A stretch of 64,000 nucleotides of DNA from Actinomycetes bacterium. Lineage in GTDB: Bacteria; Actinomycetota; Actinomycetes; Actinomycetales; Microbacteriaceae. A model generated the notes under the pieces. The model was not told the origin of the DNA, made no database searches, and saw nothing but the letters and a program-made list of their open reading frames with translations. Of this stretch, positions 1 to 64,000 are shown piece by piece. Made by a program: the position numbers and the translations under genes. The stretch lies in assembly GCA_029777095.1 (NCBI GenBank), contig JAKOTS010000032.1, positions 135,039 through 199,038 on the forward strand. Reading direction: 5' to 3'. The number at the start of each line of letters is the position of its first letter. The first letter of the stretch is position 1.

Positions 1-306
1 GTGGCCACGGCATCCTCCCGCTCGAATCACACGCTGGTCGAGATCATCTGGTCGAACAAGTGCTACGCGGGTTGGGCCAGAATCACCCGGTACGACGAGC
101 AGGTCTCGGGCAACTCGATGACCGTGGCGATTTATCCTGAGACGGCGGCGCACGGGCCCGACCGGCAGGCAGCGACCGAACCCAACGTGCAGAGCGCGTA
201 CACCACGCTCCTCGTGCGCCCGACGCCACAGACCCGATTGTGTGCCGTGGCCGTGATCACGCTGGGCGGCGAAAGCATCGACCTCGGCGAACCGCTCTGC
301 ACATAG
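1..306 (+). CDS. 3' end of a gene truncated by the window edge; DUF2690-like domain
   Basis: Open from base 1 to TAG at 304-306. Segment VEIIWSNKCYAGWARIT resembles the VELRYSxxCxAxWAR core of DUF2690, with a second Cys near the C-terminus. Confidence 0.5.
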   Translation: MATASSRSNHTLVEIIWSNKCYAGWARITRYDEQVSGNSMTVAIYPETAAHGPDRQAATEPNVQSAYTTLLVRPTPQTRLCAVAVITLGGESIDLGEPLCT

Positions 307-325
307 CTGCAGTTGCTCTCGGGTG

Positions 326-485
326 CCGGACGCTTCGTGCACTGTCCGAAGCGTCCGGAGACGTCTGACTGGGCAGTTTCGGACACCCTCCAGAGGGCGA
401 AATTGCTTCAATAGAGCCGCGGGGGGCATTGTTCGGGTGCGCGACTGGGGTGGGGACGCGCATCCGAACTGCACCCGCGGGCTAT
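326..485. repeat. Intergenic inverted repeats / long hairpins (REP-like or terminator-like)
   Basis: Perfect 12-bp IR CCGGACGCTTCG (326-337)/CGAAGCGTCCGG (347-358). Imperfect hairpin 411-485 with inner stem GTTCGGGTGCGCG (431-443)/CGCGCATCCGAAC (457-469). Confidence 0.7.
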
Positions 486-615
486 CCAGCGTTCAGGTTG
501 CGAAGGTACGCTTGTTGCACACCGGCACGAAGGCGAGCCGATGCGTTTCATTACACCTTCCGCATCTACCCGCCCGCATTCGACCGTTCGCAACGCGTCG
601 ACGCTAGGAGGCCTT

Positions 616-1356
616 ATGTCAGGCAACGCCGACCTGGTACTGCCCGACCTGACTGGCTACGACGCCGTGCTGTTCGACCTTGACGGGGTGCTCACCCCGA
701 CCGCCGCAGTGCACATGCACGCGTGGCGCGCAATGTTCACGCAACTCTTTGCCGACTGGGGCATCACGCCCGAGTACAGCGACGCCGACTATTTTGCGAG
801 CCTCGATGGCAAGAAGCGATACGACGGCGTGGCAGCGCTCCTGCGCCAGCGCGACGTCGAGGTGCCGTGGGGCAACCCCGACGACGGCCCCGAAGCCGAG
901 ACGGTGTGCGGGATCGGCAACCGCAAGAACGTGATCTTTGCCCAGATTCTGCGTGATGAGGGCGTCGAGCCCTATCCGGGATCGGTGCGATTGCTTGACC
1001 TGTTGCGAGATGTGGGCGTGCCCGTTGCCGTCGTGTCGAGCTCGAAGAACGCGGTCGAGGTGCTCACCGCGGCCAAGCTGCTCGATCGCTTTCCGATCAT
1101 CGTCGACGGGGTCGTCGCCGAGAACGAGAACCTGCCGAGCAAGCCCGCGCCCGACGTGTTCCTCGTCGCGGCCGAGCGTCTCGGCGTGAGCCCCGCGCGA
1201 GTTGCCGCGGTCGAAGACGCGATCTCTGGCGTCGCCTCGGCCGCTGCCGGCAACTTTGCGCTCGTCGTCGGCGTCGATCGCGGCACGGGGGCCGATGCCC
1301 TGCGGGCGGCAGGCGCGCACATCGTGGTCGACGACCTTGACGAACTCGTGCCGTGA
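616..1356 (+). CDS. Beta-phosphoglucomutase-family HAD hydrolase
   Basis: HAD motif I FDLDGVLT, motif II VVSSS, KPAPD and EDA motifs. AGGAGG SD at 606-611 supports ATG 616. Adjacent to a GH65 phosphorylase. Confidence 0.9.
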   Translation: MSGNADLVLPDLTGYDAVLFDLDGVLTPTAAVHMHAWRAMFTQLFADWGITPEYSDADYFASLDGKKRYDGVAALLRQRDVEVPWGNPDDGPEAETVCGIGNRKNVIFAQILRDEGVEPYPGSVRLLDLLRDVGVPVAVVSSSKNAVEVLTAAKLLDRFPIIVDGVVAENENLPSKPAPDVFLVAAERLGVSPARVAAVEDAISGVASAAAGNFALVVGVDRGTGADALRAAGAHIVVDDLDELVP

Positions 1357-1436
1357 GGCCGAGGCATCCATTCGTTTCCACTTCACATTCTTCATCGAGC
1401 AGTTTTCGACCCGCACCCGGAGGACCACGCAGTTTC

Positions 1437-9739: not shown

Positions 9740-11212
9740 GTGAAGAGAACAGTCGACGTCGTCCTCATTGGTGGCGGCATCATGAGCGCAACCCTCGGCA
9801 CCCTGATTAAGAAGCTCCAGCCAGAGTGGACCATCGAGGTGTTTGAGCGGCTTAGTGATGTTGCGTTGGAGAGCTCCAATGCCTGGAACAACGCTGGCAC
9901 TGGCCATGCGGCGCTCTGTGAGCTCAACTACATGCCCGAAGCGAGCGACGGTTCCGTCGACCCGGGCAAGGCCGTGAGCATCAACGAGCAGTTCCAGCAG
10001 AGCCGCCAGCTGTGGTCGTCGCTGATCGAGGAAGGCGTCCTCGATGGCCCCTCAACCTTCATCAACTCGACCCCCCACATGACGTTTGTGCAGGGCGAGA
10101 AGGGTGTCTCCTACCTGAAGCGCCGCTACGAGGCGCTTCGCCACGAGCCGCTTTTCGCCGGCATTGAGTACAGCGAAGACAGCCGCGTCATCCACAAGTG
10201 GGCACCCCTGCTGATGAAGCAGCGCCGCAAGGGCGAAGTCTTTGCCGCCACGCGCGTGCCCGCCGGTACCGACGTCGATTTCGGCGCGCTCACCCACCAG
10301 CTCGTTGACAACCTGCGCGAGCAGGGTGTGAGCGTGCAGACCAACACCGAGGTGCGAAACCTCCGCCGCGCCAGCGACGGCACATGGAACGTCAACTTCC
10401 GCCGCACCATCGGCAAGACGCCCGGCAGCATCAACGCGCGCTTCGTCTTCGTTGGCGCGGGCGGCTGGGCGCTCAAGCTTCTGCAGTCATCGGGCATCGA
10501 CGAAATCAAGGGCTTCGGCGTCTTCCCCATTGGCGGACAGTTCTTGAAGACCAGCGACCCGAAGATTGTCGCTGAACACCAGGCCAAGGTCTATTCGCAG
10601 GCATCCGTCGGTGCACCGCCGATGTCGGTCCCGCACCTCGACACCCGTGTCGTCGACGGCACCGCATCGCTGATGTTCGGCCCATTTGCCACGTTCAGCC
10701 CGAAGTTCCTCAAGAACGGCAAGATCACCGACATCGTCGCGCAGGTTCGCCCGTCGAACCTTGGCACGATGCTCAAGGTCGCGTTCGACAACCCGGGGCT
10801 CATCAAGTACCTCGTCACCGAGCTGCTCAAGAACCACAGCAAGAAGGTCGAAAGCCTGCGCGAGTTCATGCCGTCGGCGAAGAACGCCGACTGGGAGCTC
10901 ATCAACGCGGGCCAGCGCGCTCAGGTCATGAAGCGCGACCCGAAGACCGGGCCCGCGCTGCAGTTTGGCACCGAGGTCATCACCTCGGCCGACGGCACAA
11001 TCGCGGGTCTGCTCGGTGCTTCACCCGGCGCATCGACGGCCGTGTCGATCATGCTCGACCTGCTGGGGCGATGCTTCCCAGAACACATTGACGGCTGGAA
11101 GCCCAGCCTGCGCGAGCTCATCCCGAGCTATGGCACAACGCTGAACACCGACCGCGCGGCCGCAGAAGCCTCGATGAAGGCAACGGCCGAGGTGCTCTCG
11201 ATCAACTTGTAG
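9740..11212 (+). CDS. mqo: Malate:quinone oxidoreductase
   Basis: DVVLIGGGIMSATLG, ESSNAWNNAGTGH, GAPPMSVPHLD, AGQRAQVMK, LLGASPGAST. TAGACT -10 (9728-9733) 6 nt before GTG. Confidence 0.96.
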   Translation: MKRTVDVVLIGGGIMSATLGTLIKKLQPEWTIEVFERLSDVALESSNAWNNAGTGHAALCELNYMPEASDGSVDPGKAVSINEQFQQSRQLWSSLIEEGVLDGPSTFINSTPHMTFVQGEKGVSYLKRRYEALRHEPLFAGIEYSEDSRVIHKWAPLLMKQRRKGEVFAATRVPAGTDVDFGALTHQLVDNLREQGVSVQTNTEVRNLRRASDGTWNVNFRRTIGKTPGSINARFVFVGAGGWALKLLQSSGIDEIKGFGVFPIGGQFLKTSDPKIVAEHQAKVYSQASVGAPPMSVPHLDTRVVDGTASLMFGPFATFSPKFLKNGKITDIVAQVRPSNLGTMLKVAFDNPGLIKYLVTELLKNHSKKVESLREFMPSAKNADWELINAGQRAQVMKRDPKTGPALQFGTEVITSADGTIAGLLGASPGASTAVSIMLDLLGRCFPEHIDGWKPSLRELIPSYGTTLNTDRAAAEASMKATAEVLSINL

Positions 11213-11289
11213 CCGCGTTTTCGCGGGGGAGAGTGGATGCCGCAGCCGGGGCATCCACTGAACGTCTGTCAGTTCCGTAGAATCGGCGA

Positions 11290-13066: not shown

Positions 13067-13334
13067 CCGAGACACAGCGTCCCCTCCGAGACACAGCGGG
13101 TGCGCGTGTGTTTCGACGTCAGCGGTGTGTTTCGCGGGGTGGTGAGGGCTGGTCGGGCGAGCGGATGCCGCAGCCCAGCGTGGTGACGGTCGGTTGGGCG
13201 AGCGGATGCCGCAGCCCAGCGTGCGGGCCAGGTTTCGGCGGCCGGGTCGGGCTCGAGACGCGGCGCTGACTCTGAGACACAGCGGGTGCGCGTGTGTTTC
13301 GGCGTCAGCGGTGTGTTTCGCGGGGTGGTGAGGG
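13067..13334. repeat. REP-like intergenic repeat cluster
   Basis: 61-bp direct repeat at 13088-13148 and 13274-13334 (1 mismatch). 28-bp direct repeat at 13155-13182 and 13196-13223. CCGAGACACAGCG at 13067 and 13086. Confidence 0.85.
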
Positions 13335-26111: not shown

Positions 26112-26172
26112 CCGGCTGTGGCCCGACCCCAACGCGGGGGAATGCCCCGCACCCAACGAAAGGAACACCACC

Positions 26173-41475: not shown

Positions 41476-44282
41476 GGGTGCTGAGACGAATCGTGACCGG
41501 GGCGGCGCTCGCCGCGGCGATGGTGCTGGCTCCGGTGAGCGCGCTCACCGGAGGCATTGCTGAGGCATCCGCTGCGCCCATCCAGGTGCGTCCGATGGCC
41601 GCCGCGCCCCTCTCGCAAACTGGGCAGGCCGCAATCGACGACCTCCGCACCTGCCTCGCCTCTGAAGACGTACTCAACGTCTACTATCTGATCGACAATT
41701 CACTCTCGCTTGCGCTCGAAGACGACGGCGTCACGCCGGGTACCGACCCCGAAACGGTGCGCGCCGAGATCCTTGGCAACAGCCTGCAGCAGCTCGGCGC
41801 GCTCGGCGCGGGGCACCAGGTCAACTGGGCAGCCGGGTTCTTCAGCACCGATTTCACGCCCGCCATTGGCTGGCAGGGGTGGACGTCGCAGAGCAACGCC
41901 CAACTCGCCGACTCGATTCGTGGCAAGAAGCCCGGCGGGTACACCAACTGGCTTGGGGGCCTGCGCGGTGCACAGAACGCGCTCGCGGCTCAGGAGCGCG
42001 TCGCGCCCGGTTGCCAAGTGGTCGTGTGGCTCACCGACGGAATGATGGACCTCCCAAACAACGCCGACGAAGCCCCCGCGATGGCGGCCCTGTGCGGGAG
42101 CGGGCCGAGCGATTTTGGTGTGCTCAACGCGATGCGTCAGTCGGGTACCGTCGTGCTCGGCGTGCTCCTGGCAGACCAACAGGTCAGTGCCGACGCCGAA
42201 ATCTTGCGACCGCTGGTCGAAGGCACCGGCACGGTTGGGGGCCAAGAAACCACGTGCGGACAGCAACCGATTCCGAGCACACACGTGCACGGCGCGGTGA
42301 TCGAGGCGGCCGATCCTGCCGCGCTGGCGCTCGTCTTTCTTGAACTCGCAACCCGCATTGGCGGCGGGTATCCGGCACCCCTCGCGGCCGACGGCTCGTT
42401 CTTCATCGACGCGGGCGTTGCGCGGTTTCAGTTCGTGATCGGCGGTGGCGATTGGGTGCTCGAGGCGCCCCCCGAAACCGGCCTCTCACCGATGACAGCA
42501 GCGAGTCCTTGGCCCGGTGTCAAGATCACCCCGTCCGGTAGCGCGACGGTGATCGAGGTGCCGATCGGCGAGGCGACGCAGCTCGGAAAGTGGCGATTGG
42601 ATGCCGGGGACGTCCGTGATGTGTTCCTCTTTAGCGACCTTCGCATCGTGTTCGATGCCCAGAACAAGATTGAGCTCGGTGCCGACGGCGCGGCCTCATC
42701 GACCATCGGCGGCACCGTGCAGGGCCCCGATGGCAAGCCCGCCGACCTCGCGGTTTATGGTGATGCGGCGTTTCACGCGGCGATCATCCCCGCAGACGGT
42801 TCTGCACCGATCCCGCTTGCGGGCGCTGAGGTTGATCCGACCTCGGGCACGGTGAAGATTCCGCTGCCCGCCGACATCGACTCCGCCGAGCTGCTCCTGA
42901 GTGCGTCCATCGACCCGCTGACGACGGCACCGCACGGCCTCGCGCTCGCGCCGGTGACCACGCAACAGCGGATTCCGACGGTGCTTCCCGCGTCCTTCCC
43001 CAGGATTCCCACCCTCCCCGTGAGACTTGCCGATCTCGTCGGTCGCGACGGGCTCGCGACCGGGGTGATCCGCGTCGAGCCCGCCCCCGATGGCAGCGCG
43101 ACGCAGGTGTGCACGTCGGCCGATGTCACGGTGGCAAGCGATGCCGCCGAGCGTGGGCAGACCTGGGCGTGGACCGTGGGCGAGAGCGCAACGGTCGAGG
43201 CATCCTGCATCGCGGTCCCCGCGGGCACCAGTGTCGTCGAGATTCCGATCACGGCGGCCAACAGCGTGCCGGCCGACAGCGACGTTCGCGCTTCGGTGCC
43301 GGTGACTTTCGTCTCGGCTGCGGGCGACGAAATCGTCCAGCAGGTGCCGCTGACCTTTTCTTCGACGCGTCCGCTGAATGCGGCGGCGACGGGCCTCATC
43401 GCGCTCGGGCTCCTTGTGTTGGGGGTCCTGCTCCCACTCATCATTCTCTGGATCGTTAACTGGTTGACGACCACCCTGAGCATCGCGCGCAACACGCAAC
43501 GAGGCATGCTGCCCGTGACGATCGACAGCGCCGGTGTGCGCACGAACGTCGCGATCGACGAGTCGTCGCTCGGGGCCACCGTGTTTCAGAACCGGCCACC
43601 AATCGAGCGCGAGCGCTCGATCCACGACCCCGATCTCGGGGTGCTTCGGGCCCGCGTGCCGTGGTGGCCAGTCAACGACACCTGGTTCGAAGTTGTGCCG
43701 CCCACTGGGTCGGCCATCGTGCTCGCCCGCACCAGCACTCGCGCGGGCTCGCTCGGTTCTCGAGCCAACCCCGACGACCGTGCTGTGCGCTTCTCGAACC
43801 TGCCGCTTGACTCGTTCACCGCGGTCGTGGTGAACGAAGAAGAACTCCGCCGCACGCGAAGAGGAGACGCGGTCTCGGCGCGCGTGGTGTTCTACCACCG
43901 GCCCGAGCCTGGCGTGTCAGACCAATACACCGCCAGGTTTGCCGAGCTGCAGGCCGAGTCAGACCTGCTTTCGCGCGTCGACCGGCTGCGCGAGAGCCTC
44001 GCTGCCGGCGCGGCAACGGCAACGGCAACGGCGGTAATGCCAACGGACGCGGGACGCGTACCTGCATCTGCACCCGCGCCTGAACGCGGGCGCGCGGATG
44101 CCCCGCCCCCGCGCAGCGGTGGGGGAGCCACGCCGCCGCCACCCGCGCGCGACGGCGGGGCGATCCCGCCGGGCCCCGGTGGCAACGGAGCGCCGCCCGC
44201 GCCAGGCGTTGGTGGATCGCCGCCCCCGCCCTCCCGGGGCGGCCCGCCCCCGCCGCCGCCTCCGCCCTCGCGCGGCGGGTAG
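41472..44282 (+). CDS. Membrane-anchored vWA (MIDAS) domain protein with Pro-rich cytoplasmic tail
   Basis: Signal-peptide-like N-terminus, DNSLS (DxSxS), GGYTN, VWLTDG, beta-rich middle, TM helix (IALGLLVLGVLLPLIILWIV), polyproline C-terminus. Confidence 0.88.
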   Translation: MRVLRRIVTGAALAAAMVLAPVSALTGGIAEASAAPIQVRPMAAAPLSQTGQAAIDDLRTCLASEDVLNVYYLIDNSLSLALEDDGVTPGTDPETVRAEILGNSLQQLGALGAGHQVNWAAGFFSTDFTPAIGWQGWTSQSNAQLADSIRGKKPGGYTNWLGGLRGAQNALAAQERVAPGCQVVVWLTDGMMDLPNNADEAPAMAALCGSGPSDFGVLNAMRQSGTVVLGVLLADQQVSADAEILRPLVEGTGTVGGQETTCGQQPIPSTHVHGAVIEAADPAALALVFLELATRIGGGYPAPLAADGSFFIDAGVARFQFVIGGGDWVLEAPPETGLSPMTAASPWPGVKITPSGSATVIEVPIGEATQLGKWRLDAGDVRDVFLFSDLRIVFDAQNKIELGADGAASSTIGGTVQGPDGKPADLAVYGDAAFHAAIIPADGSAPIPLAGAEVDPTSGTVKIPLPADIDSAELLLSASIDPLTTAPHGLALAPVTTQQRIPTVLPASFPRIPTLPVRLADLVGRDGLATGVIRVEPAPDGSATQVCTSADVTVASDAAERGQTWAWTVGESATVEASCIAVPAGTSVVEIPITAANSVPADSDVRASVPVTFVSAAGDEIVQQVPLTFSSTRPLNAAATGLIALGLLVLGVLLPLIILWIVNWLTTTLSIARNTQRGMLPVTIDSAGVRTNVAIDESSLGATVFQNRPPIERERSIHDPDLGVLRARVPWWPVNDTWFEVVPPTGSAIVLARTSTRAGSLGSRANPDDRAVRFSNLPLDSFTAVVVNEEELRRTRRGDAVSARVVFYHRPEPGVSDQYTARFAELQAESDLLSRVDRLRESLAAGAATATATAVMPTDAGRVPASAPAPERGRADAPPPRSGGGATPPPPARDGGAIPPGPGGNGAPPAPGVGGSPPPPSRGGPPPPPPPPSRGG

Positions 44283-44356
44283 CCGTGTACCTCGCGCATC
44301 CTGCGCCGGGCACAACTGATCTTGCACCTGACCACACCTACTCAGAAGGCGAAACC

Positions 44357-47300
44357 ATGCTTAGACCGTTCCTCATCATCGGCGTCGGCGGCTCCGGTGG
44401 AAAGACTCTGCGCGGCATCAAGTACCAACTCGAGCTCAAGCTGCAGCAGGTGGGTTGGCGCGGTGGGATCCCGGACGCATGGCAGTTTCTGCACTTCGAT
44501 ACGCCGACGGTGCAGGACGGCATCGACTATGCCATCCCCTTCCTTCCGCCGCAGGAATACAAGGGGCTGGTGAGCGCAGGGGCGACCTACGACACCGTGT
44601 ACCGCTCAATCGAGCGCGCACACGCCACGAACGCGAGCGTGCACAAAGACATCCAGCGGCAATTGCCCGACCCACAGATCGTGCGCGTCGACGTCACCAA
44701 GGGTGCCGGCCAGTACCGTGCCGTCGGCCGCGCCGTCGCGCTCTCGTCGACGAAAGAGATCGCGGCGGCGGCCCGTGCGGCGATCGGTCGCCTCGGTGAC
44801 GCGCAGGCGCTCGCGCAGCTGCAGACCCTCGGCCGCGCCCTCCGTGCGCGCGACGACGGCGCCGCATCAAGCTCGCCCACGGTCATTGTTATCTCGTCGA
44901 TCGCCGGTGGTTCTGGCGCGGGACAGTTCCTCGATGTGATCGAGGTCGTGAAGTCGACCGCGAAACAGTACCCCTGGTCGAACCAGTTCTTCAGCATGCT
45001 GTACGCGCCGGATGTGTTTGACCAGCTCCCGGTGACCGCCGGAATGCCCGGCAACGCCATCGCCGCGATCGCGGAAACGATGAACGGGTTCTGGACCGAC
45101 ACGCCCTCGCAGTCAACGCTTGAACTCCTCAAGAACCAGGGCATCGCGCCCTCGTATGGCGGGGCGATGGACAACGTCGGGGCGGCGTATCCATTCATCA
45201 TCGGGCGAAGCAACTCGAAGGTGACATTCGCCGACCAGAGTGCCGTCTACGACGCCGTCGCGACCAGCCTCACGGCGTGGATGACCGACGACCGTGTGCA
45301 AGACGAGATCACGGCCTATGCCACCGGCAACTGGCAGAGTCGGGTGGGCGCCAGCGTGCTCAGCGACGCCACTGGCCTGATGAGCCCGGCGCGCAATTCG
45401 CCGCCGTTCTCGTCGATCGGCTTTGGCCGCGTGACGCTCGGCCGCGAGAAGTTTCTTGAATACTCGGCGGAGCGCTTCGCGCGTTCCTCGGTGGATCGCA
45501 TGCTGTTTGCGCACATCGAAGACGACAAACAATTCATGCAGCGTACCGAGGAAGAGTGGGTTGCCGTCCGCGCCTCCGAGGCGTACCAGCGCTTCATCAC
45601 CGAGCTGCGCCTGAACGAAGACACCGAGGAGCACAACGACGTCGTCGACGCGCTCCGCGCCGGCGACATGATCAACAACCTGGTGGCGAGCCTCGAACAC
45701 GAGGTGCAGGCGCGCCTTGCCGATCCGGCACAGCTCGATCGCAACGGCGGGCTCGACATCAGCTCGTGGTCCGAGCGCCTGCTCATCGAATACACCTACC
45801 GTGCCCCGGCACTGTTGCTGCGTGATCAGCAGGCGCGACAGGCGAATTTGGATGCCTGGATCGCGTCGGTGCCCTCCAACATTCTGCACACGATTGCCCG
45901 CTACATCTCGAGCTCCGGGTTGCCCGTGGTCATCAAGATGTTGCACCAGCTCGAGGGCGACCTCAAGGCCGCGTCCGACAGTCTCATCGCCGAGGCGGGT
46001 ACTCGTCACGGCTGGGTCCAGCAGCTCAACTCCTTGGTGAGCCAGGAGCTGCAGTCCGCTCCCAACCAGCAGTCGATTCGTCCCGATCAAGACGCGGTGG
46101 CGGGCGCCATCGAGCGCATCGGCCAGGGACTGCGCTGGGCGAGCGAGGCAAAGCTGCGGTCCTCGGCCGCGCAGCTGATCTCGGAGCTTCGCACCGACTT
46201 CTTGGGGCCGCTGCGCCACTATTTGCAGAGCACGCTTGACGAGCTTGGCCAGCGTGCGAAGGCGCCGAAGACCAGCGATGACCGTGACAACGGGTATCCC
46301 TTCTGGCCCACGCGCGAAGACACGACCGTGCCGCGCAAGTACGAACCGGCACCGAATGAGCGGCTCCTGGTCGAGCACACCGAATACCCGACGGAGTTCG
46401 ACCGGCTCGTGCGCGCAAGCGCCGGTGGCCCTGCAACCCGCTTCGGTGACGCCATCCTTGGGGTCATCTCCGAGCTCATCGTCGGTGAGGCGCCCAACGA
46501 TGTTGACCAGGATTCCGACACGTCATGGGCCCTGGTCTCGATCAACCGCACCTGGGTGCCCTCGGTCCTGACCGACGGAACCTCCCGCACGAAGCAGGCG
46601 CCGCGCTTCGCGATGGCCGCGCAACCCGATACCTACGTGCAGCGCGCGCGTGCGTGGATGCGCCGCGAAGGTACGCCCTTCAACGCCTATGTCACCGAAG
46701 ACCTGATGACGTTCTTCGACGACGTCGAGTTGCCGCCCGACGTGTTCGGTCGCCGTCGCGAGAAGTATCGCGAGCAGCTCACGGCGGCTCTCGGCGCGAG
46801 CGAACCGCTGGTCAAGCTCAACCCGTCGCTCCTTCGGATCGTGCATGACAAGGCGATCGGTGACTCCACCGGGCTCGTGTTCAGCTCGATCCCCTTCAAG
46901 GAGGGCACCGAAATGTACGCCGTCACGAAGACGGTGCTTGGCAACATGGGCTTCTGGGATGACGCTGTCTCTGACGGTTGGTTCCATGACGCCCGTGTCG
47001 ACGGCATCGAGGTATTCGCGATGTCTGGATTCCCCTACCAGCCGATCGTGATGGATTCGGTGATGGAACCCATCGCCCGGGACTGGCTTGCCCAGTCGCA
47101 CTCGCAGGATGCCCGTGAATCGTTCTGGCAGTTCAAGAAGAGCCGGCTGCTCGAAGAAGCCATTCCGGCCGACCCGCAGGTCACGCGCGCGATGATTCGT
47201 GGCTGGTATGTCGCCAAGGCGTTGGGCTGGCTGAAAGCGCCAACCGAGACCAGCGAGCGTGGCCCGAAGCTTGGGGTGTGGGACTCGGAGCGTCGAAGCG

Positions 47301-47770
47301 ACGTGTGGTTCCCGCATCCGCTTCTGCACCCCCGGAATGCACCCGCCGCGGACTTCCCGGGCGTCGTGATGCAGTCGCTCACGATCGCTTTGGCGCTGTG
47401 CAACTCGGAAGGCTCGCTCGAGCCGCTCGCGGGCTACCAAGCGCTCAAGGCGCTCGGTGGACCACGGCTCGAGATGGCGCCCGTGCTGATGAACTGGGTG
47501 CAAAATGGCCGGGTGCCCGAAGGATCGGCGTTGCCCGACGAGGGACGTGCCGGCGGAAGCGCGGGCAGCCTCGAGTCGCGTCAGCTTGCCCTGAGCGAGT
47601 TCTTCCGTCAGCAGACCGTCGCGTTCACGGAGGGCGTCGTCAATCACGACTTCCTCGAGTCGGTGTACGACTACCCGGTGAGCTGGGAGATTCGCGACCT
47701 CATCTTGACGGCACTCGACGACCTCACCTCCTCGGTGATGTCGACGCGTGCCCCGGACACGGGCGTTTAG
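44357..47770 (+). CDS. Large FtsZ/tubulin-like GTPase (Tubulin_2 / FtsZl1 type)
   Basis: IIGVGGSGGK (cf. FtsZ IGVGGGG), GAGQYRAVGR (cf. GAGANPEVG), SSIAGGSGAG (cf. GGGTGTG signature), then an ~800-aa extension. AGAAGG SD before ATG 44357; alternative GTG at 44285. Confidence 0.88.
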   Translation: MLRPFLIIGVGGSGGKTLRGIKYQLELKLQQVGWRGGIPDAWQFLHFDTPTVQDGIDYAIPFLPPQEYKGLVSAGATYDTVYRSIERAHATNASVHKDIQRQLPDPQIVRVDVTKGAGQYRAVGRAVALSSTKEIAAAARAAIGRLGDAQALAQLQTLGRALRARDDGAASSSPTVIVISSIAGGSGAGQFLDVIEVVKSTAKQYPWSNQFFSMLYAPDVFDQLPVTAGMPGNAIAAIAETMNGFWTDTPSQSTLELLKNQGIAPSYGGAMDNVGAAYPFIIGRSNSKVTFADQSAVYDAVATSLTAWMTDDRVQDEITAYATGNWQSRVGASVLSDATGLMSPARNSPPFSSIGFGRVTLGREKFLEYSAERFARSSVDRMLFAHIEDDKQFMQRTEEEWVAVRASEAYQRFITELRLNEDTEEHNDVVDALRAGDMINNLVASLEHEVQARLADPAQLDRNGGLDISSWSERLLIEYTYRAPALLLRDQQARQANLDAWIASVPSNILHTIARYISSSGLPVVIKMLHQLEGDLKAASDSLIAEAGTRHGWVQQLNSLVSQELQSAPNQQSIRPDQDAVAGAIERIGQGLRWASEAKLRSSAAQLISELRTDFLGPLRHYLQSTLDELGQRAKAPKTSDDRDNGYPFWPTREDTTVPRKYEPAPNERLLVEHTEYPTEFDRLVRASAGGPATRFGDAILGVISELIVGEAPNDVDQDSDTSWALVSINRTWVPSVLTDGTSRTKQAPRFAMAAQPDTYVQRARAWMRREGTPFNAYVTEDLMTFFDDVELPPDVFGRRREKYREQLTAALGASEPLVKLNPSLLRIVHDKAIGDSTGLVFSSIPFKEGTEMYAVTKTVLGNMGFWDDAVSDGWFHDARVDGIEVFAMSGFPYQPIVMDSVMEPIARDWLAQSHSQDARESFWQFKKSRLLEEAIPADPQVTRAMIRGWYVAKALGWLKAPTETSERGPKLGVWDSERRSDVWFPHPLLHPRNAPAADFPGVVMQSLTIALALCNSEGSLEPLAGYQALKALGGPRLEMAPVLMNWVQNGRVPEGSALPDEGRAGGSAGSLESRQLALSEFFRQQTVAFTEGVVNHDFLESVYDYPVSWEIRDLILTALDDLTSSVMSTRAPDTGV

Positions 47771-47771
47771 C

Positions 47772-50700
47772 GTGACGCAACGGTTCTGGCCGGGCGGCAA
47801 AGCCAGTGTGATCTTGCTGCCGAGCGGCAAGCAGGGTCTCGCCGTGCTTGAGCGCGCCGCGCAATGGACCCAAATGGGTCTGCTCGGCCCGGCGCTGTGG
47901 GTGCTGCCCGAGCGGGTCTCCATCGGCACCGGCGGCCCCGCGGTCATCGGTGCAACCGTGCTGGGCGTCGGGCGTGAGCAACAACTGGTCACGCTCGAGG
48001 TCGACCTATTCGAGACCCTCGCGCGCGAAGAGCTCCGGCTCGTGCGCATGATCAAGCTGCGATCGGCGAGCGCATCGCGCGAGCTCGATGCTGAGCAAGA
48101 CGGCATCGCCGACACCGTTGCCGCAACCCTCAGCCAGTCGATGCCGATGGCGACGCCCACCGCGAATGTGGCCGACCGTGCCACCGACCTCGCTCGGGTC
48201 ACGCTCATTTGCGCCCCCAGCGAGTTTCAGTTGCAAACGCGCGTCGACTGGGCGGTCAAAGAATATGGCACGGTCGTGGTGGCCTCACCCGAAGACCGCT
48301 CGAGCCCGTGGTCAGGTGACGCGTTTGTGCGCGACAACGACCGTTTCGTCGGCTTTGTGTTGATGCACCTCGCGAGCGTTGCAGGGCTCTGGAGCGGCGT
48401 CGAGAAGGGCACCTTCGAGCTTTTCCCGAGCCAGACCTCAGGCGTCGGTAGCGTGTGGGTCTCGCGGGTCTTCCTCAACGCGGTGCTCACCGAATCGATC
48501 GGTCGACGGACCGCCGCCGGCGTGCTCGAAGAAGCAGGCCGCGCCGACTCGCTCCTGATCGATCCCAGCGTTGGATCACCACCAGAGGGCACGTTTTACA
48601 TCGACGACGGTGACGTTGCCGGGTTCACCGCAGCGATGGTCGACGCGGTGCTCTCGCTCGACGCCGCCGCGCTCGCCTTTCACCCACCCGCGGTGGTGGC
48701 CGACCCGCCGCAGCGCCGCATCGGCATCGGTGCGCAGTTCGGCAGCTTCTTCTCGTTCTCGGGTGACAAGCTCGCGGGCATGCCGCGCTGGACGTGGCGC
48801 TGGGTCACCTCGAGCACGGCTCGCTCGCTCACACGTCGCCTCCACGGCGATGACGGCACGCACGTCGTAGGCGAAGACCTCGATCAGGCATTCGATCTGC
48901 GCGACCGGCTCCTGCTGCTCGAACGCGGACGCGTCCTCGAACATGAGCAGGCCGCGCGCGCCATGATGGCTGGTCCGGTTGGCGTCGGGCAGCAGCACAC
49001 CACCCCACGCTTGTGGACCCGCCTGCGCGAGCTCGTGTTTGGCTCGCTCGACGGAAGTTCAGATCTGAGCGACCTCGGGTTCGCCGAGGTCGAGGGTAAG
49101 GTCCCGGTGTTTGGCCGGGTCAGCGATGTGTTTGAAGCACCCGACGAGCTGTGGTCGCCCCCCGACGGGGCTGCCCGGGCCGGCGGGGCGCCGATTGGCT
49201 GGCACGACATCGCGCTCGAGAACCCGCGCGCGGTGCTCGTAGAGTCTGCGGTGCGGAGCGCGAACGATCAGGAGCAGGCCGAGGCCCAGTTGACGCTTGC
49301 CCAGCGCACGGTCGCTGAGCTGCATCATCAGCGCGAGGTGGGCGAGTGGCAGAGCGTGCTCGACGGCACGATTTCGATCGCGATCGCTGAGTCTGACGCG
49401 GATGCCGCTGGCAACGGTGCTGCCGCGGCTGACGCCGCTCCGACGGCCGACGTCGTGAACGGGCCCGGCGTTTCACCCAACGACGACGACGCGGATGACA
49501 GCGACGACCGCGACGACACTGACGACACGAATGGCGTGGAGGAGAAGACCGAAACTCCCCTTACTCGGGCCGCGCTGAAAGCAGAGGCAGAAGCAGAAGC
49601 AGAAGCAGAGGCAGAAGCCGAGGCCGAAGCAGCTACCGATCCGGACACCGACACCGACATCGACAACGAAGCGGGTGTCGAACCCACGGCCGAGACTGCA
49701 ACGAGCGTGGATGCCGAGGAGCCTGGCACGCCAGCAGCAGCAGCACCAGCACCAGCCGCAGCGTCAGCACCCGCCCGCGACCCGCGCCTCGAGGCATCCA
49801 TCGCGGCTGCCGAAGCTCGACTTGCAGCGGCCGAGGCGCATGAGCGCGAAGTCGCTGCGGCGCGCATCGCGTCCGCCGCGGCGGTCGAGAGCTTCGACGT
49901 CTGGGCCGTGCGCCACGAACGCTCGTTCGTGTGGCGCCTGCTCGCACGCCTTGCACACGAGCGCCGTGGCGCCCAGGCCGCGGCCGACTCGTTCGCCCAG
50001 GGCATCGACGCGCTCGACGTGCAGAAGCCCGGCGCGCTGATTGCCCTGCGCAAGCGCTTTCACCTCACCATGCTGGTGGGCTGGCTGATCATCGTGGCCG
50101 TTGCCGCGCTCCTCATTCTGCTCCCCGTGTGGTTCGAAGACCTTCGCCCAAACGCGTCCTGGTACCCCAACGACCCGACCATCTTCACGGTGGCGGCGCT
50201 CGCCGCGGTTGTCTTGACGCTCATCGCGCTCGCGACGTACCACCGAGGTTGGTCACAGTTCCAACGGCGCATCGACCTTGCACAGGTGCATCTCACGCGG
50301 GTCTCGCAGGGCTCCGTGCACGCTCGCATCGAGGTCGCGCGCCTTGGGTCGCTGCACCGGCAGACGGTTGATTGGCTCGTGCTGCTGGCACGCGGCATCC
50401 ATCGGCCATGGCTCGTCCCCGAAGAATGGTCGCAACGGCCCTCCTATGCGGGGGCGCGCGACGCGATGCCGTTCGCGATGCAGATCGGGCAGGTGCAAGA
50501 CGAAGACCATGCGGCCGCGACCCGGCTCAAGCGCATGACGAAGGAGCGGCTTGTCGTGCGGGGCTGGCGCCAGCAAGCCTTTACGGCGCTGATCGCCGAG
50601 GTTGCCGCCGAACTCGGGCAGGGCTCGGCATCGTTCGGGCTCGCCGCGCTCGACGAGGACTTGCCGCATTCGTCGAACCACACCCGCGAGATGCTGCGCG

Positions 50701-51224
50701 AAAACATGGGCAACGAGGCCGTACTGCAGCGCGTCGCCGCACCGCGACTGCGCGAGCTGATGGCGTCGATCCAGCGCTCGGCGCTGCACGGAAGCCGCCC
50801 GCTTGTGCACCCGGTTGGCGACAACCCGCTGCGCGAGATTGCCTCCACGGACGTCGTGGGTGGGGCCGTCGAAGACCTGCCATGGGATGACTTCCTGCTC
50901 GGCTCGCTCGCCGGCCGCCGCGACCCGGTCACGCCGCTCAGCGCCGTGAGCATGTCGGAGCGGCAGGTGCAGGAGGGCTATCACGAGCACGTGCAGAGCC
51001 TGCTCGTGCTTCCGGAGCGACTCGAAGCCGACCTCGAGTTTCGGGCAGATGCGCCGGTTTCGCTCGTGCCCTACGGTGGTGGCGGCTCGGCCACGCTCGA
51101 CCTGGTGTGGCGCGTCGACCTGGCGGGGCCGCTGCCGGTGTCGGCGATCCGGTTGTGGGATGCCGCAGCCGAGCCCCCGCACGAGGGCACGGGCGTGCAG
51201 CACCGCGAAGACTCGGGGGTGTGA
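47772..51224 (+). CDS. Large hypothetical 2-TM protein with acidic/Ala-Glu linker, gene 4 of the operon
   Basis: GTG 1 nt after the previous stop; 1150 aa; two TM helices; D/E-rich and (EA)n region; GC3-rich coding pattern. Confidence 0.85.
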   Translation: MTQRFWPGGKASVILLPSGKQGLAVLERAAQWTQMGLLGPALWVLPERVSIGTGGPAVIGATVLGVGREQQLVTLEVDLFETLAREELRLVRMIKLRSASASRELDAEQDGIADTVAATLSQSMPMATPTANVADRATDLARVTLICAPSEFQLQTRVDWAVKEYGTVVVASPEDRSSPWSGDAFVRDNDRFVGFVLMHLASVAGLWSGVEKGTFELFPSQTSGVGSVWVSRVFLNAVLTESIGRRTAAGVLEEAGRADSLLIDPSVGSPPEGTFYIDDGDVAGFTAAMVDAVLSLDAAALAFHPPAVVADPPQRRIGIGAQFGSFFSFSGDKLAGMPRWTWRWVTSSTARSLTRRLHGDDGTHVVGEDLDQAFDLRDRLLLLERGRVLEHEQAARAMMAGPVGVGQQHTTPRLWTRLRELVFGSLDGSSDLSDLGFAEVEGKVPVFGRVSDVFEAPDELWSPPDGAARAGGAPIGWHDIALENPRAVLVESAVRSANDQEQAEAQLTLAQRTVAELHHQREVGEWQSVLDGTISIAIAESDADAAGNGAAAADAAPTADVVNGPGVSPNDDDADDSDDRDDTDDTNGVEEKTETPLTRAALKAEAEAEAEAEAEAEAEAATDPDTDTDIDNEAGVEPTAETATSVDAEEPGTPAAAAPAPAAASAPARDPRLEASIAAAEARLAAAEAHEREVAAARIASAAAVESFDVWAVRHERSFVWRLLARLAHERRGAQAAADSFAQGIDALDVQKPGALIALRKRFHLTMLVGWLIIVAVAALLILLPVWFEDLRPNASWYPNDPTIFTVAALAAVVLTLIALATYHRGWSQFQRRIDLAQVHLTRVSQGSVHARIEVARLGSLHRQTVDWLVLLARGIHRPWLVPEEWSQRPSYAGARDAMPFAMQIGQVQDEDHAAATRLKRMTKERLVVRGWRQQAFTALIAEVAAELGQGSASFGLAALDEDLPHSSNHTREMLRENMGNEAVLQRVAAPRLRELMASIQRSALHGSRPLVHPVGDNPLREIASTDVVGGAVEDLPWDDFLLGSLAGRRDPVTPLSAVSMSERQVQEGYHEHVQSLLVLPERLEADLEFRADAPVSLVPYGGGGSATLDLVWRVDLAGPLPVSAIRLWDAAAEPPHEGTGVQHREDSGV

Positions 51225-51933: not shown

Positions 51934-51977
51934 AACGACGGGAGGGTGGATGCCGAAGCATCCACCCTCCCGTCGTT
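51934..51977. terminator. Bidirectional terminator hairpin
   Basis: Perfect 20-bp stem AACGACGGGAGGGTGGATGC / GCATCCACCCTCCCGTCGTT with CGAA loop between convergent genes. Confidence 0.88.
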
Positions 51978-59460: not shown

Positions 59461-61938
59461 GTGAACGCACGGAGCCGCTGGTCTGACGTGATTTCGGGGC
59501 AGGATCCCGCGCACGCCCGGCTCACCGTTGCCCTCGCCGTCACGACCGGGGTGCTGCTCAGCGCGCTCTTTGGCGACTTCGCGGTGCGAGTGCTGCACGC
59601 CGAAACGAGCCTCTTGTCGGTGTCGATCATGCTCTCCGTGCAGGCAGGCAGCATGGTTACCGATGCGACGGCGCCCAAGCGCACGGTCACCTCGGCGCTG
59701 CTGATCCCGGCGCTCCTGCTCTCGGTGCTTGCCGCCGCGGCGCTGTCAGTGCAACCGCCGCTTGTGAGCGCGGGGTTCATCTTGATGACCGGTGCCGCTA
59801 TCTGGGTGCGCAAATATGGCCCCCGTGCCGCGGCGATTGGGGCGATCAGCTTCATGGGCTACTTCTTCACGCTGTTCGTGAAGCCCGCACCCGACGAGCT
59901 CCTTGTCTTCTGCCTCATCGCGACCGTTGCCGCGGCTTCGCAACTGCTGATGCGCCTCGTGTTGCTGCTGCGGCGTCCGAGGCGCGAGCTTGAGGTGCTC
60001 TTGAAGGGGCTTCGCGCCGGGTCTGCGGCCGCGATCCATGCGGCGTTGCCTCCGCCGGGGCGCGTCGACGAGCGGCATTCGCTTCGCTTAGCGCTTGCTC
60101 GGCTCGACACGGTGGGTGCCGCGATTACGTCGTGGCAGGACCGGTTTCAAACCGAGCGGCACGTCGCCATCGGCAAACAGGCTCTGGCGGAGCAGGTTCT
60201 CGACGCCCGGGTCGACACCGAAGAGGCCTGCTATGAGCGTGCGCGCCACGCGCCGTCGAGGGTTGCGACGGCGTCGAAGGTCTTGCACGTCGTGAAGGGT
60301 TTGAAGGGGCCGGGTGGTTCGGACGGTTCGCCTGCTTCGGGTGCCTCGGGTGCTTCGGGCGTTTTGAGTGATTCCGGGGGTTCGGACGGTTCAGTTGCTT
60401 CGGAAGCTTCGGGCCCCACGGATGCCCCGAATTCGGCGTCGCGTCGTGAGGTAGAGCGCGCGGAACAGGCGCTGATGACGATTCTCGATGACCGGGCCGC
60501 GCCCTATCGGTATCGCGCCGCCCGCGACGTTGCGGCCGACCTGCTCCACCAGGGCGATACCCAGGACGGCGACCTCGAGGCGTATCTGCTCGCGCGCAGT
60601 GCGGTCGCCCATGCGCGTTTGCGCGACATCGACCTGTCGCATCCGCTGCACGAAAAAGCGGGCACAGCATCGGGGGGCGTGCCGGCGGCGGAAGTCGCGG
60701 CATCCGTCACTGCAGCGGGCGAGGCATCCGCGACGGCTGCGGGCGAGGCATCCGCGACGGCTGCGGGCGAGGCATCGGCGATCACCCAAGCCCGACCGGC
60801 GACGGCGCCGGCGATTGAACGGAGGCCGGCAGGGGCATCCCGATCCGGTGCGCGCAGATGGAGCTGGAAGCCGTGGCATTCGTGGGCACCGACCACTCGC
60901 ATGGCAGTACAAGCGACGATCGCAGCACTGCTCGCGGCCGGCGTTGGCGAGATGATCTCGGCCTCTCGGTGGTACTGGGCAGTCATGACGGCTTTCGTGA
61001 TCTTCATCGGCGGCAACACCCGCAGCAGCATTTTCACGCGCGCATACCGCCGCGTGGCGGGCACCGCGATCGGCATCGTCCTTGGGGTTGGCGTCGTCAC
61101 GCTGGCGGGCAGCAACAACGCCGTCTTGATTGCGATTTGCATCGTCGCGGTGTTCGGCATGCGCTACTTCGGAACGCTCAGCTACCTGTATCAGGCGATA
61201 TTCACGACCATGATGCTCGTCGCCCTGTACCGATTGCTTGGGGTGCTCGGGGGTTCGATCCTCGAGGTTCGGCTCATCGAAACGATCTCCGGCGCGGTGA
61301 TCGGAGTCCTTTGTGCGTACCTGATTTTCTCGGCTACTTCGCGTCCCGCGCTCCTCACCAAGGTCGATGCGTATTTCGATGCGCTTGACGCCCTACTCAG
61401 CGCCATCGCGGCGGGGCAGCAGCGCGATCCCGAGCGCGTCATGTCGCTCCTCGGTGCCCTCGACGACGCGCAGTCTGCGGTCGACAAGACAGTCTCGGCG
61501 ATGTCGGCGGCGTTGGCTGTGCGGGGCCCGCACCAGGGGAGCGACGCCGTCCACGACATGTTCACCGCAAGCCGGGCTGCCGCGCGTCTCGTACAGGCCG
61601 TGGTTGGCGAGCAGACACCGCAGGCAGACGAGAAGGTCGCCGAGAAGGCTCTGGGACAGGCGGTCGAAGAGGTCCGTCAGACGGCACGAGCAGCGCAGCG
61701 AATCCTGCACGGCGAGCACGTCGACGGCACCGCCGACTCAAGCGGCGCGCTCCCTCTCATCGTCGATCACCTTCGCGACGCATCGCTGCGGAGCCCGAGC
61801 TCCCTCGACGCGGTCCTGGCGCTTGCCCGCATCGACTGGGCGTTGCGCCGACTGCTCGAACACAGCGAAGCGGTCGACAAGCGATCACGCCTCGAGAAGT
61901 TTGAGCAGCTCGTGCGACCCGGCCGCGAAGACGGGTAG
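59461..61938 (+). CDS. FUSC-family membrane protein
   Basis: N-terminal TM block, second TM block with RWYWAVMTA and YRRVAGTAIG, coiled inter-domains with low-complexity inserts. Confidence 0.85.
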   Translation: MNARSRWSDVISGQDPAHARLTVALAVTTGVLLSALFGDFAVRVLHAETSLLSVSIMLSVQAGSMVTDATAPKRTVTSALLIPALLLSVLAAAALSVQPPLVSAGFILMTGAAIWVRKYGPRAAAIGAISFMGYFFTLFVKPAPDELLVFCLIATVAAASQLLMRLVLLLRRPRRELEVLLKGLRAGSAAAIHAALPPPGRVDERHSLRLALARLDTVGAAITSWQDRFQTERHVAIGKQALAEQVLDARVDTEEACYERARHAPSRVATASKVLHVVKGLKGPGGSDGSPASGASGASGVLSDSGGSDGSVASEASGPTDAPNSASRREVERAEQALMTILDDRAAPYRYRAARDVAADLLHQGDTQDGDLEAYLLARSAVAHARLRDIDLSHPLHEKAGTASGGVPAAEVAASVTAAGEASATAAGEASATAAGEASAITQARPATAPAIERRPAGASRSGARRWSWKPWHSWAPTTRMAVQATIAALLAAGVGEMISASRWYWAVMTAFVIFIGGNTRSSIFTRAYRRVAGTAIGIVLGVGVVTLAGSNNAVLIAICIVAVFGMRYFGTLSYLYQAIFTTMMLVALYRLLGVLGGSILEVRLIETISGAVIGVLCAYLIFSATSRPALLTKVDAYFDALDALLSAIAAGQQRDPERVMSLLGALDDAQSAVDKTVSAMSAALAVRGPHQGSDAVHDMFTASRAAARLVQAVVGEQTPQADEKVAEKALGQAVEEVRQTARAAQRILHGEHVDGTADSSGALPLIVDHLRDASLRSPSSLDAVLALARIDWALRRLLEHSEAVDKRSRLEKFEQLVRPGREDG

Positions 61939-62012
61939 GCGCGGCTCGCTCAGTCGGGTGGCGCGTCTGGCTCGGCCGGGGCGGTGGACTCGGCCGGGTA
62001 GCTGCGGCCAGC

Positions 62013-62582: not shown

Positions 62583-62673
62583 CGGTCGAGTCTACGGCGC
62601 GCGTTTGGCCGGCGGCTACTGGGGGTCTGGCGGTGGCCCGCCGCCCTGCGATCCCTTGCCTCGTCCGGCCACA

Positions 62674-62820
62674 CGGCTCAACCGTCCGGCTACGCGTCCA
62701 TCCGCGCCCGGCTACGCGTCCCGCCCGCCCGGCTCAATGGCTCGGCTACGCGTCCCACTCGCCCGGCTCAACCATCCGGCTACGCGCCGACCCGCCCGAC
62801 TTTCGGCCACGCGGCTCACG
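62674..62820. repeat. Degenerate tandem repeats CGGCTCAA...CGGCTACGCG(T)CC
   Basis: CGGCTACGCG at 62687, 62709, 62743, 62777; CGGCTCAA at 62674, 62730, 62764. Confidence 0.8.
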
Positions 62821-62913
62821 TCAGTTCTCCTGCACAATTGACCCCGCGGGCGATGACGCACGGATTGCTCGGGCCCGAGGCATCCGGCCCCGATTTCAAC
62901 GCAGAGTTGTCGC

Positions 62914-63810
62914 ATGGATCAGCGCGTATTCACCCGGGCCGAGCTTCGTGATGCCGGGCATACGAGGGCGTCGATCGCGTCGAGGATCGCGTCCGGCGAG
63001 ATTGTGCGGGCGCGACGTGATCGTTACCTCGATGGCGGCGTAGCGCCCGAACTTGTCGAGGCGGTACGCGTCGGCGGGCGCCTGACATGCGTCTCGCTGC
63101 TCGCGCTGCACGGGGTCTTCGTGCTTGAGAGCCCGGGACTGCACGTACATTCCGGGCAGCACGCGAGCCGGCAACGCGCGCGTTGTTCCGCCGAAATCTT
63201 GCCCGACACCCCAGAACTGCTTCGCGCTCGGGAGGTGCGGCGGCATTGGAATCCGCTCATTGAACCGGTGGATGCCGCAACCCCTCATGTCGGAATCGTG
63301 GACGCGCTCGTGCATGCGGTGCGCTGCCAACCGCCGCGCGCCGCTGTCGCGACGCTTGACAGCGCGCTCAATAAGAAGCTGATCAGCCTCGAGCAACTGG
63401 ATGACGTCTTCGCGGCGCTCTCGCGAAAGTACCGGGTGTTACGCCCGCTCGTCGACGGCCGTGCTGAATCGGGCCCCGAGACGCTGATGCGCCTGCTGTT
63501 ACGTGCCCTGGGTTGCAGGGTCGAGCTGCAGGTGAGGTTCGCGGGGATTGGCCGAGTCGACCTGCTCGTCGATGGCTGGCTCGTCATCGAGTGCGACAGT
63601 CGGTCGTTCCATGAGGGTTGGGCGGCGCAGGAGAAAGACCGCGAACGTGATCTGGCCCTCGCTGCGCGTGGGTTTACGACGCTCCGGCCGACGGCGAACG
63701 CGATCATGCGGCGACCGGGCGAGGTGGCGGCCGCCGTGCGCGGATTGCTTGAGGCGCGGTCGGTTGTTCGGGGCGCGGAGCGCCCGGTCGCCCGCCACGC
63801 GCGGCCCTAA
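62914..63810 (+). CDS. AbiEi-like wHTH + DUF559/Vsr-like PD-(D/E)XK endonuclease protein
   Basis: N-terminal TRAEL..AG...I...G...R.RR..Y; C-terminal AESGPET, RVDLLVDG.LVIECD...FH, DRERD..L...GF..LR. Confidence 0.85.
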   Translation: MDQRVFTRAELRDAGHTRASIASRIASGEIVRARRDRYLDGGVAPELVEAVRVGGRLTCVSLLALHGVFVLESPGLHVHSGQHASRQRARCSAEILPDTPELLRAREVRRHWNPLIEPVDAATPHVGIVDALVHAVRCQPPRAAVATLDSALNKKLISLEQLDDVFAALSRKYRVLRPLVDGRAESGPETLMRLLLRALGCRVELQVRFAGIGRVDLLVDGWLVIECDSRSFHEGWAAQEKDRERDLALAARGFTTLRPTANAIMRRPGEVAAAVRGLLEARSVVRGAERPVARHARP

Positions 63811-63939
63811 CTCAGGAGCAGCGACACTCACTTGGGCGCCGCGACGCTAACTCAGGAAAACTGCGCGCGGAGCGCGGGCCGCCCCCGGAATTCCGCGGGT
63901 TGCTCGGGTGCGGCTACCGTTTTTCCTGAGTTAGTGTCG
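63807..63939. repeat. REP-like CTAACTCAGGA repeats and long stem-loop
   Basis: CTAACTCAGGA at 63807 and 63847, inverted TCCTGAGTTAG at 63924-63934; stem CGACGCTAACTCAGGAAAA (63842-60) / TTTTCCTGAGTTAGTGTCG (63921-39). Confidence 0.85.
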
Positions 63940-64000
63940 TTGGCCGGGTTGGCCGGGTTGGCCGGCGGGCGGGCGCGCGCGGTGCGGGTTCGCCGGGTCC

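Follow-up and report, generated by a model that had tools for sequence, protein, structure and literature searches.

GGATGCC is a chromosome-specific, orientation-aware DNA word iterated in Microbacterium and many other Microbacteriaceae

Words by which bacteria recognize their own DNA are known from very few groups. Uptake words have been described in two Gram-negative families, as the uptake signal sequence (USS) of Pasteurellaceae, with core AAGTGCGGT, and the DNA uptake sequence (DUS) of Neisseriaceae, GCCGTCTGAA and its dialects. Chi sequences, which differ between bacterial groups and of which co-orientation with replication is a hallmark, are known from Proteobacteria (GCTGGTGG for E. 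coli RecBCD) and Firmicutes (AGCGG and GCGCGTG for AddAB), and the highly iterated palindrome HIP1 (GCGATCGC) from cyanobacteria. Words may also accumulate by mutational drive, for which Dcm/Vsr in E. coli is the precedent and which has been proposed for HIP1. To our knowledge, no sequence-specific uptake has been described in high-GC Gram-positives. Here we characterize the heptamer GGATGCC (GGCATCC on the opposite strand) in a 64,000-nucleotide stretch of a Microbacteriaceae genome (positions 135039-199038 of contig C109, hereafter the window), in the whole genome and across the family. We find that GGATGCC is a DNA-level signal that is orientation-aware, chromosome-specific and actively maintained; coding bias, a Dcm/Vsr-type repair drive, a RecBCD Chi and FtsK-orienting polar sequences (KOPS) are excluded. 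Its best explanation, which we put forward tentatively and by analogy, may be a 'self' word acting at the DNA level, most probably through a mechanism like that of USS and DUS. Literature on the word, on Microbacterium methylomes and on a Chi for AdnAB yielded no prior description, the sole text containing both words being a primer table.

Counted exactly, the window holds 102 copies (51 on either strand), compared to 13.8 expected (s.d. 3.7, maximum 27 in 100 dinucleotide shuffles); 77 lie in coding sequences (CDS, 1.37/kb) and 25 in intergenic DNA (3.22/kb). The first-pass annotation of this window had counted roughly 95–100 copies by eye against an estimated GC content of ~68%: every position that it listed (1363, 2480, 2723 and so on) carries the word and the enrichment is stronger than it had estimated, while the computed GC content is 66.7%. 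Across the assembly (genome G000; 2.43 Mb in 132 contigs, 66.3% GC), the word occurs 2669 times (1.1/kb), with 1343 forward and 1326 reverse copies. It ranks first among ~8000 canonical heptamers and is the most over-represented of them at Markov orders 1, 3 and 5, with observed-to-expected ratios (O/E) of 4.9, 4.2 and 1.35, respectively. No similar heptamer is equally frequent, all 21 one-mismatch neighbours having O/E between 0.44 and 2.2. As a separate observation, the second most over-represented heptamer of the whole genome at order 5 is AGCGCCT/AGGCGCT (961 vs 592); AGCGCC has been reported as the site of MspCY2I, a type III N4-methylcytosine system of a Microbacterium strain (PMC8259958).

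The enrichment resides in the DNA and not in what the DNA encodes. Using a gene model built for this analysis (2029 genes, 86% coding, 83% GC at third codon positions), we counted 2259 copies in the CDS of the genome, compared to 753±21 after a gene-by-gene shuffle of synonymous codons and 646±20 after a shuffle of codon order; likewise, the window's 43 complete CDS hold 76 copies vs 21.3±3.6 (maximum 32 in 300 synonymous shuffles). Loss of the enrichment in a codon-preserving shuffle, which the first-pass annotation had named as decisive against its proposal, was thus not observed. All six frame and strand classes exceed the synonymous-shuffle null, by 1.3 to 19 times, the highest value belonging to the frame xxG-GCA-TCC despite its rare codons. 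Spelling follows the word accordingly: GAT-GCC encodes 63% of Asp-Ala pairs after a preceding G and 10–13% otherwise, GCA-TCC encodes 33% vs 5% of Ala-Ser pairs, and 21% of protein-permissive positions carry GGATGCC vs 7% expected. Furthermore, the excess is symmetric to transcription (~734 GGATGCC vs ~773 GGCATCC on the sense strand), and the genome's intergenic density (1.17/kb) matches that of its CDS (1.08/kb). An origin of the word in codon usage, dipeptides or base composition could still be argued from the Gly-Ile codon pair GGC-ATC-C, a common pair that makes up 430 of the 753 copies in the null and most of those in phages. Against it stand both codon shuffles, the 19-fold excess of a rare-codon frame, the equal coding and intergenic densities, the top rank at order 5 and the low density (0.21/kb) of Leucobacter at the same locus and similar GC, and we give this explanation virtually no credence; the shuffles, the frame analysis and the intergenic density rule out a coding or compositional artefact. 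A dispersed repeat of the repetitive extragenic palindrome (REP) or miniature inverted-repeat transposable element (MITE) type is ruled out as well, 85% of copies lying inside genes and in frame and only 7–13 bases being conserved.

Around the invariant core of 7 bases, flanks are weak and asymmetric (Y on the 5′ side, G-C-R-G-C-C on the 3′ side), and coding and intergenic copies show the same preferences. The tail N-C-R-G-C-C follows 14% of genome copies, 18 times the background rate, and 17 of the 102 window copies; the extended forms GGATGCCGCAGCC and GGATGCCGCGGCC occur 121 and 94 times in the genome. These flanks are specific to lineages around a common core, reading Y-GGATGCC-GCRGCC in this genome and C-GGATGCC-G in other motif-rich genera, in which 0.5–2.4% of copies carry the tail.

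By its TopA, the organism belongs to the Microbacterium lineage (92% identical to a metagenome-assembled genome and 64–70% to named species). Abundance of the word was compared across relatives, in several cases with a reversed-word control:

Same genus: 0.35–2.25/kb, 3–28 times the reversed-word control.
Family Microbacteriaceae, 151 genomes: ratio to control 0.9–25, coherent within genera.
Sixteen other families of the order: ~0.2/kb.
Microbacterium, syntenic loci: 1.34/kb, 594 vs 31 for the control.
Leucobacter, syntenic loci: 0.21/kb, 73 vs 30 for the control.
Brevibacterium, syntenic loci: 0.27/kb.
Dermatophilaceae, syntenic loci: 0.35/kb.

GGATGCC is therefore family-wide but patchy in Microbacteriaceae. 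The earlier proposal of a lineage-specific, genome-wide iterated signal that seeds hairpins holds: the word is strong in Microbacterium and many other genera of the family, whereas its frequency in Leucobacter, genus g75 and other families is close to background. Most motif-poor genera have no dominant word of their own, and a search for a replacement word (a dialect test) found none in Leucobacter or in genomes G099, G190 and G081. In G099 (genus g75; loci L114-L118), which is without the orphan methyltransferase described below, GGATGCC is depleted (7 vs 18.6 under the null, with zero intergenic copies). The GGATGCC-poor genome G144 (genus g21; loci L124-L128) has an iterated word of its own, GCAGGA/TCCTGC (220 vs 58 expected; extended form GCAGGAGC, 71 vs 7), which exceeds the synonymous-shuffle null in all six frames and is equally dense in intergenic (2.26/kb) and coding DNA (2.19/kb). 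Brevibacterium loci L046-L076 carry CCTCGGCG/CGCCGAGG at ~1.3/kb in several frames, without same-strand avoidance (455 in CDS vs 129 in the synonymous shuffle, these loci being orthologous and the counts not independent). GGATGCC may belong to a wider set of lineage-specific words, with GCAGGA as a member in g21 and CCTCGGCG as a possible one in Brevibacterium.

Along the genome, the word is distributed almost uniformly (11.3 per 10 kb). The longest interval without a copy (11.6 kb, C25:99884-111521) is the S10-spc ribosomal-protein operon from rpsJ to secY, and genes in the top codon-adaptation decile carry 0.77/kb vs ~1.15/kb in the remaining genes. Other gaps are low in GC and island-like, comprising a surface-polysaccharide cluster, an array of major facilitator superfamily transporter paralogues and a HigA-like region, and such low-GC, island-like stretches hold few or zero copies; the motif-dense contig C33 encodes ordinary catabolic enzymes. 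Replication polarity was absent both from the skew bins of this genome (470 vs 466 copies of the two orientations in positive-skew bins, 330 vs 333 in negative-skew bins) and from samples of complete genomes, and the lack of a strand skew switching at origin and terminus rules out KOPS or an architecture-imparting sequence. Spacers between tandem, divergent and convergent genes hold 1.24, 1.37 and 1.36 copies/kb, respectively; convergent spacers are not enriched, which speaks against a terminator role.

Spacing of the copies is more even than random and depends on orientation. Same-strand pairs are depleted below 200 bp (z −5.5 to −3.5), with 7 vs 27.8 expected below 25 bp, and at 50–200 bp they reach ~0.5 times the random expectation, compared to ~1.0 times for opposite-strand pairs. 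Pooled opposite-strand pairs equal the random expectation; within them, convergent pairs closer than 25 bp are in excess (40 vs 14.4) and correspond to hairpins and palindromes such as those listed below, and divergent pairs are enriched at 50–200 bp. A deficit of same-strand pairs was likewise found in 22 Microbacterium loci (0.72 vs 1.47, P < 1e-4) and genome G106 (0.45 vs 1.14, P = 0.002), with genomes G116 and G148 pointing the same way.

Sites of the word are roughly twice as well conserved as control words. All pairs of 24 syntenic Microbacterium loci were compared (~8500 motif-site comparisons; all pairs were drawn from a single 23 kb region and are not independent of each other), and motif sites were intact in 49%, 61%, 75% and 87% of cases at ~80, 85, 90 and 95% nucleotide identity, compared to 24%, 32%, 48% and 67% for one-mismatch neighbour words; the gap fades at ~75% identity. 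This all-pairs test replaced a first, small comparison against locus L001 (5 of 17 sites). Phages, by contrast with their hosts, are not enriched (O/E 1.3 vs 3.0). Five lytic Microbacterium phages (66–67% GC) have 13–20 copies each, nearly all GGCATCC on the gene strand; their CDS hold 82 copies vs 63.2 under the synonymous-shuffle null, 56 of the 82 being plain GGC-ATC-C codons, and the host-diagnostic frame xxG-GCA-TCC occurs 5 times vs 3.6. The temperate phage Min1 has 14 copies vs 12.8 under the null. The word is hence a property of the chromosome and not of any DNA replicating in these cells.

A mutational drive, in which a mark set on the word by a methyltransferase is coupled to a repair bias that turns near-matches into matches, was suggested in part by the first-pass annotation and has a candidate enzyme. 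The genome encodes an orphan beta-class DNA amino-methyltransferase (C87:8304-9287; PF01555, E = 2e-44), whose nearest solved relatives are M.RsrI, CcrM and M.MboIIA and which lies in housekeeping surroundings, between lipoate-protein ligase and F420-type oxidoreductase genes, with no adjacent nuclease; GGATGCC/GGCATCC offers exactly one adenine per strand. The enzyme is found in 139 of the 151 family genomes, and the 12 genomes without it have a lower median enrichment (2.7 vs 5.6 times, Mann-Whitney P = 2e-4), with enrichment of at least 8 times in none of them compared to 48 of the 139. Because the 12 genomes belong mostly to phylogenetically remote genera, for the most part the ones whose AdnA diverges most, this family-level correlation with a methyltransferase is confounded by clade. 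Within the genus the tie fails: the motif-poor species G001, G014 and G019 carry the enzyme, and it is seemingly missing only from assemblies that are 79–89% complete, two of which are motif-rich. The orphan methyltransferase is thus rejected as the determinant of motif richness within the genus. Moreover, the enzyme is 70–80% identical among the 139 genomes that have it, even between genera whose motif loads differ by a factor of 10, g21 with its different word among them.

The repair half of the proposal fares worse in its classical form. Vsr (PF03852) is absent from this genome and present in 32 of the 151 family genomes without relation to motif load, the six-frame translation holds no catalytic motif of a C5-cytosine methyltransferase (PCQ-type), and no depletion was seen in any of the 21 one-mismatch neighbours, the lowest O/E being 0.44 and that of the transition neighbours 1.1–2.1. 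A Dcm/Vsr-type drive is accordingly ruled out. Nor is the word enriched in phages that replicate in these same cells, and we know of no repair bias tied to N6-adenine methylation, so a drive of any such kind appears improbable. The remark that GGATG and GCATC are the recognition sites of FokI and SfaNI reflects a mere coincidence of letters, no such enzyme having been found.

The orientation-specific spacing bears on a second alternative, a Chi-like signal read on one strand by the translocating end-resection enzyme AdnAB, whose recognition of the word would switch it from degradation to recombination, so that the word would mark and protect resident DNA while phage DNA lacks it. We consider this the main rival, though an unlikely one. 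Chi-like properties include a short, asymmetric, top-ranked word with O/E of ~5, absence from phages, unrelated words in different lineages, and an evenly spaced set in each orientation that is independent of the opposite one, as fits a directional single-strand reader. AdnA and AdnB genes (C50:25.6-32.3 kb) encode the only RecBCD/AddAB-type enzyme of this genome, and AdnA is present in 148 of the 151 family genomes; these include motif-free genera, which counts against the proposal, as do the missing co-orientation with replication and a density of 1.1/kb that exceeds that of a typical 7–8-mer Chi. RecC is absent from all 151 genomes, which rules out a RecBCD Chi in particular. We know of no Chi for AdnAB. 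In a 2026 paper on the structure of AdnAB, Chi is cited for AddAB and RecBCD only (PMC13000450).

The conservation and even distribution of sites would also be expected of a HIP1-like chromosome-structure word, that is, a binding site of an abundant nucleoid or chromosome-organizing protein kept by selection. GGATGCC is hyper-abundant, frame-independent, near-uniform over coding and non-coding DNA, more evenly spaced than random and better conserved than control words, and for HIP1 such conservation has been argued by Xu et al. to be a sign of selection (PMC5861425). However, GGATGCC is no palindrome, a candidate protein that would bind it was not identified, and a simple double-stranded DNA binder would not be expected to produce orientation-specific avoidance; moreover, complete loss or replacement of the word in g75, g21 and Leucobacter would need repeated rewiring of a core nucleoid function. 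We rate this explanation as rather unlikely, below a Chi-like signal and above a mutational drive.

An uptake sequence remains, in our view, the possibility to be preferred, even if held tentatively. DUS show core-genome bias, absence from recently acquired DNA, high conservation and location at permissive sites (PMC2397512). Under a comparable model, the word would have been built by point substitutions, mostly synonymous, and then kept by weak selection or molecular drive on resident chromosomal DNA, acting via homologous recombination. A putative component of a Tad-pilus/ComEA/ComEC uptake route would prefer DNA that bears the word; alleles with the word would be taken up and recombined more often, and the word would consequently accumulate where proteins tolerate it. 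The link to recombination is one that we infer. Genes for such a route are present, with comEA-comEC on contig C127 and genes for a Tad ATPase, TadB/C and a TadE-like protein in the window, and Flp/Tad-dependent natural transformation has been reported in the actinobacterium Micrococcus luteus (PMC4322843). In addition, a Hi-C study reported a Microbacterium population gaining a non-conjugative plasmid from extracellular DNA, which suggests transformation (PMC10257627).

Several points weigh against an uptake sequence. The plasmid gained by that Microbacterium population was foreign DNA (PMC10257627). ComEC is present in 148 of the 151 genomes, motif-free genera included, and is thus non-discriminating; competence genes, universal in the family, are permissive only, and since ComEC and AdnA are both near universal, phyletic tests of either are uninformative. 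We know of no uptake bias, receptor or competence phenotype in Microbacteriaceae. The avoidance is specific to same-strand pairs, which is not predicted by a receptor that binds double-stranded DNA either way. Association with terminators is weak, unlike that of DUS, as the equal densities of convergent and divergent spacers indicate, and the unrelated words found elsewhere (GCAGGA in g21, CCTCGGCG in Brevibacterium) resemble Chi diversity more than DUS dialects. We see about an even chance that GGATGCC is a recognition word kept by selection and read by a dedicated, strand- and orientation-sensitive DNA-reading machine in Actinobacteria, in which case it would be the first uptake-specificity or Chi-type signal of the phylum.

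Copies of the word also build local structures, of which the window contains the following:

11232-11259: hairpin AGTGGATGCCGCAGCCGGGGCATCCACT (−19.6 kcal/mol), intergenic, 3′ of the gene at 9740-11209 (+), with convergent copies at 11235 (+) and 11250 (−).
13150-13215 (+): intergenic direct repeat with a 41-bp period, each unit with the extended 13-mer GGATGCCGCAGCC; tailed copies at 13163 and 13204.
23787-23823: hairpin with a perfect 15-bp stem containing GGCATCC...GGATGCC (−29.3 kcal/mol), in the divergent spacer between an acetyl-CoA synthetase-like gene (−) and a Tad ATPase gene (+).
23891-23910: perfect 20-base palindrome GGTGGATGCCGGCATCCACC, two abutting inverted copies, equal to its own reverse complement.
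40695-40710: perfect 16-base palindrome GGATGCCGCGGCATCC, intergenic.
51934-51977: hairpin with a 20-bp stem (−41.7 kcal/mol) between convergent genes, in terminator position, with a single full copy at 51948 (+).
60690-60775 (+): three tandem 24-bp units GGCGAGGCATCCGCGACGGCTGCG, each with one motif copy, inside the CDS at 59488-61935, which encodes a FUSC_2-family membrane protein in which the unit forms an 8-residue repeat, present three times.

All hairpins, palindromes and repeats listed in the first-pass annotation are present; its pairing of full copies at 51934-51977 does not hold, the right arm there reading only GCATCC. Hairpins are a minority use of GGATGCC, an inverted partner within 50 bp accompanying ~5% of the copies in CDS and ~13% of those between genes. 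The structures at 23787-23823 and 23891-23910 lie directly upstream of a Tad-type pilus locus (24229-26762, just upstream of topA) that encodes a CpaF-like T2SSE ATPase, a T2SSF protein and a TadE-like protein.

Two further features of the window were recorded. A separate palindromic element, purely intergenic (63807-63935), consists of inverted arms GACACTAACTCAGGAAAA ~78 bp apart around a central CCCGCGGAATTCCGCGGG-type palindrome. The genome holds 52 GACACTAACTCAGGAAAA arms, often in tandem clusters with a 200–280 bp period, further sites lying at C85:35.4-36.3 kb, 61.4-61.9 kb and 65.0-65.3 kb, at C109:43.9-44.2 kb and on C74, C91 and C126; some copies include GGATGCC, and the element looks REP- or MITE-like. 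In addition, three consecutive giant open reading frames (929, 1137 and 1138 aa) occupy 41493-51221, the middle one with a Tubulin_2 domain (PF13809) and the other two without a Pfam match.

A family-wide actinobacterial word of such a kind would provide a handle on whether high-GC Gram-positives discriminate self DNA in transformation and on whether AdnAB has a Chi, as well as on how words arise, spread and are replaced, given sister genera with strong, absent, depleted and different words that can be compared. Practically, GGATGCC is a strong marker of resident vs foreign DNA in Microbacteriaceae that can help to flag islands, prophages and problems of binning or contamination, and it confounds analyses of codon usage and motifs in the family.

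Set beside the known systems, GGATGCC shares with the Dcm/Vsr signature (CCWGG in E. coli) a coding-independent enrichment at the DNA level, though its effect is much larger and its genome is without Vsr, a C5-cytosine methyltransferase and depleted deamination neighbours. Like HIP1, it is hyper-abundant, frame-independent, conserved and variable among relatives, with an orphan methyltransferase in the background; unlike HIP1, which is palindromic with methyltransferase sites, it is asymmetric, its methyltransferase link fails within the genus, and its over-representation is ~5 times and not 15–300 times. Resemblance to Chi lies in an asymmetric word of 5–8 bases that is the top oligomer, differs between lineages and is absent from phages, with a spacing that suggests an orientation-sensitive reader; it differs from Chi in not being co-oriented with replication, in being denser than known Chi of such length and in residing in a genome that has no RecBCD and only AdnAB, for which no Chi is known to us. 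Departures from USS and DUS are a core of only 7 bases, a Gram-positive, high-GC host, a weak terminator association, same-strand avoidance without opposite-strand avoidance, and sister genera without the word or with an unrelated one. Yet, as in USS and DUS, a non-palindromic short core with weaker, lineage-varying flanks recurs at ~1/kb equally on both strands, in genes (in several frames) and in spacers, and forms hairpins from inverted pairs; it is common in resident core DNA and rare in phages and recently acquired DNA, and its sites are better conserved than their surroundings, coherent within genera and different between them. As no testable defining feature of uptake sequences failed, an uptake sequence is the closest known kind.

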